64,000 nt of DNA, from positions 32,001 through 96,000 of IMG/VR virus record IMGVR_UViG_3300025502_001322. One strand, written 5' to 3'. Both the position numbers and the translations under genes were made by a program. Shown here in pieces: positions 28,464 through 28,709 of this stretch (the first letter of the stretch is position 1; every line of letters starts with the position of its first letter). The notes under the pieces were generated by a model. The model was given only the letters and a program-made list of their open reading frames with translations, made no database searches and had not been told where the DNA came from. This DNA comes from a virus (lineage: Duplodnaviria; Caudoviricetes).

Positions 28464-28583
28464 TATGCTTCTTTAATGAATATCAGTATGTACTTTAGGA
28501 TAATCTCTCTATATACTTATGTTAAATACTAGCGTTGGAACATTGTTTTAACATTAATTAATTAATCACTGAAAGGAAATACT

Positions 28584-28655
28584 ATGTGGAGCAAGCCCGA
28601 GTACACAGAAATGCGTTATGGCTTCGAAATTTCAATGTACATTGCACATCGCTAA
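28584..28655 (+). CDS. pqqA: PQQ precursor peptide PqqA, 23 aa
   Basis: [23 protein letters not shown] with the ExxxY core; SD GAAAGGA; TAAATA at 28523; terminator downstream. Confidence 0.9.
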   Translation: [23 protein letters not shown]

Positions 28656-28680
28656 TATACATTAATTTTTAAAGAAACAA

Positions 28681-28709
28681 AAAGTGCTCACTTCGGTGGG
28701 CATTTTCTT
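28681..28709 (+). terminator. Rho-independent terminator after pqqA
   Basis: AAAGTGCTCAC-TTCG-GTGGGCATTTT; C(UUCG)G tetraloop. Confidence 0.8.

Follow-up and report, generated by a model that had tools for sequence, protein, structure and literature searches.

A lone pqqA gene in a salt-lake jumbo phage and its possible role in supplying PQQ precursor

Why would a phage carry the gene for PqqA, the peptide from which PQQ is made, and carry it alone? PqqA peptides are short ribosomal products of about 20-40 residues that hold an E-x-x-x-Y motif. They serve as stoichiometric substrates of PQQ synthesis, and their Glu and Tyr residues are cross-linked by PqqD/PqqE (PMC7678222, PMC9851590). The locus that raises the question lies in a window of 64,000 nucleotides, which corresponds to bases 32001-96000 of the 289,070-bp IMG/VR virus record IMGVR_UViG_3300025502_001322, estimated to be 80% complete. 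An initial annotation had proposed a stand-alone pqqA unit at this locus, with its own promoter, Shine-Dalgarno (SD) sequence and terminator, and had suggested that the phage uses it to boost a limiting precursor in the host late in infection. We asked which parts of this proposal hold.

The pqqA cistron and its peptide

The open reading frame at 28584-28655 (plus strand, 23 codons and a stop) indeed translates into a 23-residue PQQ precursor peptide with Glu15 and Tyr19 in the E-x-x-x-Y arrangement. Checked against the TIGR02107 model, as had been advised, the peptide scored 36.9 bits (E = 2.2e-9; cut-off 20), and PF08042 gave 30 bits (cut-off 21.1). A six-frame search of the 289-kb record returned this locus as the sole PqqA match, again above the cut-off (34.5 bits, E = 9.4e-9). 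The segment E15-I-S-M-Y19 places the cross-link pair at the spacing of the family. The peptide retains W2, K4, P5, E9, R11, G13, E15 and Y19, and the leader W-x-K-P...E...R/x-x-G, which is the part recognised by PqqD, appears complete.

For comparison with other viruses we used a degenerate motif scan of IMG/VR, which returned at least 120 loci. The scan pattern itself prescribed W2, K4, P5, G13, E15 and Y19, and the invariance of these columns among the viral homologues therefore adds no evidence of its own. E9 and R11 are the majority residues in 110 and 103 of the 120 viral homologues among the matches listed, respectively, and the phage peptide has both. None of these 120 listed homologues has Ser17, a residue enclosed by the cross-linked Glu and Tyr, or His22, and for this reason we treat the competence of the phage peptide as a substrate as an assumption.

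Two sequence elements that had been claimed to frame the gene are both present. The SD sequence GAAAGGA was read at 28571-28577 (plus strand), 6 nt before the ATG, and the related phage loci described below have a purine-rich AAGGA or GGAG core at equal spacing. Downstream of the gene, an intrinsic-terminator-like hairpin at 28679-28709 (plus strand) comprises an A-tract, a stem, a UUCG loop and a UUUUCUU tail. Its folded part, GUGCUCAC-UUCG-GUGGGCAU (28684-28703), forms a stem of 8 bp between 28684-28691 and 28696-28703 and leaves 28692-28695 as the loop. The minimum free energy of -14.7 kcal/mol (z = -4.2) was equalled by none of 200 dinucleotide shuffles, and a simple terminator scan did not call the hairpin. 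Stem and loop are kept in the relatives, with one G.U pair changed to A-U in the contig L255. At the level of sequence, we regard 28584-28655 as confirmed: it is a true stand-alone pqqA that has a ribosome-binding site and a terminator of its own and is seated in a real phage genome.

Genome context, related contigs and promoters

A chimera with a host contig had been named as one outcome that would speak against a phage pqqA. This was not borne out. The window encodes a phage-type DNA polymerase (phrog_262, E = 3.6e-194) that is 52% identical to that of Sinorhizobium phage Phosso, 45% to that of Agrobacterium phage Atu_ph07 and 43% to those of the 121Q/Serratia BF-like group, and these nearest cultured polymerase relatives are jumbo phages. 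The GC content stays level across the pqqA locus, and the same synteny is found in independent assemblies. The source of the DNA is salt-lake metagenomes, and 15 runs contain 88-99% of the stretch's sampled words. pqqA lies inside a bona fide virus genome of the jumbo myovirus type.

The independent assemblies, contigs L250-L253 and L255, were reached via Amt proteins that are 93% and 87% identical; a search of viral contigs with the 310-aa protein encoded upstream of pqqA found no related loci. The relatives share the gene order 310-aa gene, pqqA, 82-aa ORF and peroxiredoxin, and in each an intact but uncalled pqqA sits in the roughly 280 bp that separate the 310-aa gene from the 82-aa ORF. 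Codon differences amount to 7 synonymous and 5 replacement changes between the window and L250, 5 and 6 between the window and L255, and 7 and 3 between L250 and L255. PqqA is 74-78% identical to the peptides of the relatives, a value enclosed by the range of the neighbouring proteins (56-93%), and the L250 peptide is identical to that of 11 bacterial loci. As the relatives keep the gene, the hairpin and the synteny while showing synonymous as well as replacement changes, we consider pqqA to be neither a chimera nor a chance ORF. The gene appears to have been kept by selection across these related viruses.

Several further genes at the locus deserve mention. A gene for a PstS-like phosphate-binding protein (PF12849) on the minus strand follows the 127-aa gene in L250 (1629-2663) and L255 (411-1442) and is without counterpart in the window. 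L255 has three added genes between peroxiredoxin and P-II (3547-5577), one of which encodes a twitch-domain radical-SAM protein (NF033640, 246 bits), and neither the window nor L250 has this cassette there. In the position that follows the peroxiredoxin, the window has a 61-aa Cys-rich ORF (29550-29735; a weak, sub-threshold CWC-family match) and the relatives have a 66-aa RNA polymerase omega-like ORF (5132-5332 in L250; PF01192, weak); the omega-like ORF of the window lies elsewhere, at 45923-46132. A P-II gene (glnB-like, 107.9 bits) and an Amt gene (345 bits), which share one base, occupy 29880-31441 behind a perfect sigma-70-type promoter. The P-II/Amt pair also occurs in the close relatives and in the farther phage-like marine contigs L258 (Amt 78%) and L259 (73%), in the latter of which it is adjoined by a PstS-like gene. 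Judging by its distribution, the pair may be an auxiliary module for nitrogen uptake in a lineage of large phages of marine and saline waters.

The proposed promoter and the proposed timing fared less well than the gene itself. TAAATA does stand at 28523-28528 (plus strand), where it had been put forward as a putative late-type promoter core. The site reads GTTAAATA, matches TATAAATA at 6 of 8 positions and lies 55 nt before the ATG, whereas ATAAATA sites that precede start codons in this genome are mostly about 5-40 nt away, which argues against TAAATA as the pqqA promoter. Across the whole record, sites at most 120 nt upstream of a gene make up 9 of 19 for TATAAATA, 29 of 67 for ATAAATA and 9 of 67 for TTAAATA. 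Because of their concentration within this distance, TATAAATA/ATAAATA probably represent a late promoter motif of the T4 type. TAAATA is kept in L250-L255, but the entire upstream block is equally conserved. The promoter of the 310-aa gene, which is read divergently from the minus strand, must lie in this block too, and the block could serve that gene instead.

A search for a sigma-70-type promoter upstream of pqqA on the plus strand found none. The next unit has such a promoter, TTGACA-17-TATAAT, at 28708-28736 (plus strand), which matches the consensus at 12 of 12 positions, overlaps the tail of the pqqA terminator with its -35 hexamer and is kept as TTGAC-N17-TATAAT in all relatives. The unit behind it comprises the 82-aa ORF, peroxiredoxin, the Cys-rich ORF, P-II and Amt. 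Near-perfect TTGAC-N16-18-TAnAAT promoters number 21 in the whole record and 11 in the window (3696-45558, all on the plus strand), and the pqqA stretch has its sigma-70-type promoters among replication and metabolic genes. This setting suggests an early region and lends no support to the late expression that the initial annotation had assumed. Four metatranscriptome runs contained small shares of the stretch, and the RNA contigs over pqqA, all in one marine metatranscriptome, were short and came from relatives or other organisms.

Candidate functions and the host

The claim that pqqB-E are absent from the window holds and can be extended to the whole 289-kb record. Profile models for PqqB/C/D/E (TIGR02108, TIGR02111, PF05402 and TIGR02109) found none of these genes there, the lone TIGR02109 match being a generic radical-SAM protein at 15.8 bits, and tblastn with Acinetobacter PqqB/C/D/E gave zero matches. 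Because the record is estimated to be 80% complete, this absence is not absolute. A search of the record for a PQQ-dependent alcohol or methanol dehydrogenase with TIGR03075 found none. Radical-SAM proteins of the phage were considered as PqqE and rejected, as the ones tested belong to the twitch-domain and B12-binding classes; a PqqD-type peptide-binding domain was dropped as well, PF05402 having given nothing in the record. Within 289 kb, phage pqqA is therefore not linked to pqqBCDE, but the family does not depend strictly on such linkage, as orphan copies are frequent in cells (PMC4109929). Since no partner genes were found, the phage must use host enzymes if its peptide becomes PQQ.

We favour, at a probability of roughly 70%, a functional phage-borne orphan pqqA that acts as an auxiliary metabolic gene and supplies PQQ precursor to the PqqBCDE proteins of the host. 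The small cistron with its own ribosome-binding site and hairpin terminator would allow the phage to make the 23-residue precursor. Host PqqD/PqqE would bind the peptide via the W-x-K-P leader and cross-link Glu15 to Tyr19, with PQQ then completed by PqqB, PqqC and proteases of the PqqF/G type, likewise from the host. Because one PqqA peptide is consumed per PQQ molecule, the extra template would raise or maintain precursor supply during infection. Periplasmic PQQ-dependent dehydrogenases, most likely of the methanol or XoxF type, would stay cofactor-loaded and provide energy for phage production. The sequence data establish which gene this is, that it is intact, conserved and apart from other pqq genes, and that its setting is a phage; we infer its translation, processing by the host, benefit to the phage and the timing of expression.

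Methylotrophic cells point to the same step. For one pqqBCDEFG set, Methylophilaceae have 3-12 copies of pqqA (PMC4109929), and in a methylotrophic PQQ-producing strain an orphan pqqA copy ranked among the most highly expressed (PMC9851590). Such multiple, highly expressed orphan copies fit precursor supply as a dosage-sensitive step. A passage in PMC9851590 cites engineering reports in which over-expression of pqq genes brought limited PQQ gains, so precursor supply may not always be limiting. Among the readings we weighed, the boosting of the precursor envisaged by the initial annotation fits best.

It is conceivable that pqqA is instead a neutral passenger, a fragment of host DNA picked up recently and either unexpressed or without benefit. 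The gene is tiny and host-derived, the promoter search upstream of it came back empty, and the RNA contigs at the locus stem from relatives or other organisms. Yet the relatives, in which identity of the neighbouring proteins has fallen to 56-93%, still have an unbroken ORF, SD and terminator, and the codon differences that have built up include synonymous ones. The gene is also found in several families of cultured methylotroph phages and in each of the 120 listed viral contigs. Together this makes a mere passenger unlikely. The peptide might also be a decoy or competitive inhibitor, a role that had been raised as possible at the outset: bound by host PqqD/PqqE and poorly processed, it would lower PQQ and redirect host metabolism. 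Ser17 inside E-x-x-x-Y and His22, shared with none of the 120 listed viral homologues, would suit such a role, as would an HMM score of 36.9 bits that falls short of the about 46-47 bits of cellular copies. The exchange of Thr for Ser is conservative, however, and Glu15, Tyr19 and the leader residues are intact. Moreover, the peptides of close relatives at the same locus are identical to cellular ones, most listed viral copies are host-like, and loss of the main energy-yielding dehydrogenase would hurt phage production. We find little support for a decoy because the cross-linked Glu and Tyr as well as the leader W-x-K-P are all kept, and rate it as quite improbable.

Modification by radical-SAM enzymes of the phage itself, giving a product other than PQQ, was suggested to us by the unusual wealth of radical-SAM genes in this genome. 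Two of them, of the B12-binding class, are found 6-9 kb downstream of pqqA, and in L255 the twitch-domain gene is 1.3 kb away from it. None of the radical-SAM proteins scores as PqqE, though, the contig has no PF05402 domain, the twitch-domain gene of L255 is missing from that slot in the window and in L250, and small methylotroph phages have pqqA without such enzymes. We therefore hold this to be very unlikely. Equally far-fetched, in our judgement, is that pqqA is more than a booster of host PQQ synthesis and that the divergent peptide, with its Ser17 and His22, is turned by the phage's own radical-SAM enzymes into a modified peptide or quinone-type cofactor peculiar to the phage and made without host PqqE. 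We see hardly any chance that pqqA is just a patch of homology through which the phage integrates at host pqqA loci or exchanges DNA with them. Small conserved genes often act as attachment sites, and nucleotide similarity to cellular pqqA is 80-88% in the coding region only; but site-specific attachment would call for a longer and more similar match, the copy is full-length with its own ribosome-binding site and terminator, and its carrier is a 289-kb phage of the jumbo myovirus type.

Precursor supply, the reading we prefer, draws on the host. As far as sequence similarity can tell, the host is likely a PQQ-making, probably methylotrophic, proteobacterium. A PQQ-producing and possibly methylotrophic host had been predicted, with the nearest bacterial PqqA as a guide; the nearest peptides and the cultured methylotroph phages fit this prediction, but the signals for a particular lineage conflict. 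When 185,579 species genomes were searched with the pattern K-P-E-Y-x-[DE]-x-R-[FY]-G-F-E, most matches fell in Methylophaga and Burkholderiales/Betaproteobacteria/Rhodocyclaceae MAGs. The closest cellular peptides belong to Burkholderiales/Betaproteobacteria MAGs, are identical at 19 of 23 positions and differ from the phage peptide by F12Y, V16I, T17S and N22H; the Methylophaga type is identical at 15 of 23. Amt gives the opposite signal, with 59-63% identity to Methylophaga-type genomes and 30-37% to the Burkholderiales/Betaproteobacteria MAGs. Neither the peroxiredoxin (41-49% in both candidate groups) nor the omega-like protein discriminates between the groups, and the nucleotide similarity of pqqA to cellular loci, 80-88% in the coding region only, is equal for both. 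Database matches of peroxiredoxin and Amt were mostly metagenomic proteins. We infer that this host has pqqBCDE.

The bacterial genomes with the nearest peptides hold 2-3 pqqA copies each. In G001-G005 (the genomes of loci L154, L146, L197, L134 and L160), a pair of copies is found on opposite strands at a distance of about 5 kb, and G003 has a third copy in tandem.

Lone pqqA genes in other viruses and in cells

A TBLASTN search of viral sequences for short pqqA ORFs, another of the proposed checks, found lone copies. Among GenBank phages, the peptide matched a single, isolated pqqA in nine cultured methylotroph phages as well as in one uncultured genome. The cultured carriers are the Methylophilales phages Venkman, Melnitz (four isolates), MEP301 and MEP401/402 as well as Methylophilaceae phage P19250A, and they span several morphotypes; the uncultured carrier is the Manatee Spring podovirus genome. 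In these records the ORF is either unannotated or overlapped by a 'hypothetical protein' on the opposite strand. The overlapping frame, found in Melnitz (MZ577097.1, region 2961-3066) and in the Manatee Spring podovirus, is probably spurious. Our literature search found no mention of pqqA in cultured OM43/Methylophilales phages.

All 120 listed IMG/VR loci hold a PqqA-like ORF of 22-25 residues that starts 1-4 codons before the Trp, and the fetched flanks of these 120 loci contained no pqqB-E. A terminator-like hairpin with a T-tail lies within 90 nt downstream of 68 of 119 listed viral pqqA genes, compared with 33 of 599 random 90-mers from the same loci, and the mean fold energy of the 70 nt downstream of listed viral pqqA is -16.8 kcal/mol (controls -10.2). 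Given this enrichment of hairpins and the lack of pqqB-E in the listed loci, viral copies as a rule consist of a pqqA on its own with a hairpin behind it. A second viral PqqA type, exemplified by MWSKPIITEISVGLEINSYACAEK (23 residues from the Trp) and unlike the Methylophilaceae-like type, accounts for 17 of the 120 listed loci, including L011, L016, L018, L022, L026, L041 and L044. One apparent phage example was discarded: the contigs filed as 'Acinetobacter phage MD-2021a' carry full pqqABCDE beside ppk and look like bacterial chromosome, CAKLQF020000010.1 (L009) having ppk and the complete pqqABCDE cluster.

pqqABCDE(F) operons also have a hairpin after pqqA. Operon-linked PqqA of Klebsiella, Acinetobacter and Methylorubrum belongs to the same family as the phage peptide and has the same E-x-x-x-Y residues, but the gene that follows pqqA in the phage is an unrelated 82-aa ORF with its own promoter rather than pqqB. 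The orphan pqqA genes of methylotrophs, found in Methylophilaceae and as multiple or tandem copies in Methylophaga, come closer, since they share family, length and the stand-alone arrangement. There, several templates feed one pqqBCDE(FG) set (PMC4109929, PMC9851590). Those copies are cellular, whereas the salt-lake copy is viral and departs from the nearest cellular peptide at 4 of 23 positions.

Among viruses, a lone pqqA is widespread, usually unannotated and was already reported in 2020 (PMC7678222), so our understanding of this kind of gene is unchanged. That report described PqqA in a T4-like Methylophilaceae virus of Lake Baikal, population VP_266 (Coutinho et al., 2020, Microbiome 8:163; PMC7678222). 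The Baikal virus and the salt-lake phage are alike in that a large myovirus of a presumed methylotroph holds a lone pqqA, and the Baikal gene was likewise read as an auxiliary metabolic gene, for PQQ-dependent methanol oxidation (PMC7678222). The two differ in several respects. Baikal viruses also encode methanol dehydrogenase, for which the TIGR03075 search of the salt-lake phage found no match. The phage described here furthermore comes from a salt lake, has a polymerase nearest to those of Phosso/Atu_ph07/121Q-like jumbo phages and encodes a divergent KPEYTEMRY...EIS...AHR variant of the peptide. Viral pqqA has also been listed among phosphorus-solubilising genes in a 2026 study (PMC13188868).

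The cultured Methylophilales/Methylophilaceae phages show the same arrangement as the salt-lake phage, an ORF of 23-24 codons that has its own SD, lacks pqq companions and in many cases precedes a hairpin, as it does here. Their peptides are 52-59% identical to the salt-lake PqqA, and their genomes measure 35-142 kb. What is particular to our locus is the combination of a salt-lake jumbo phage, a divergent peptide and a compact cistron with a terminator directly adjoining the next promoter. An auxiliary gene of 23 codons is systematically missed by gene callers. With the present locus, the Phosso/Atu_ph07/121Q-like polymerase group joins the viruses that carry the consumable part of the PQQ pathway alone. 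Together, the copies in cultured phages and the at least 120 stand-alone IMG/VR loci suggest that precursor supply may be a general pressure point in infected methylotrophs.
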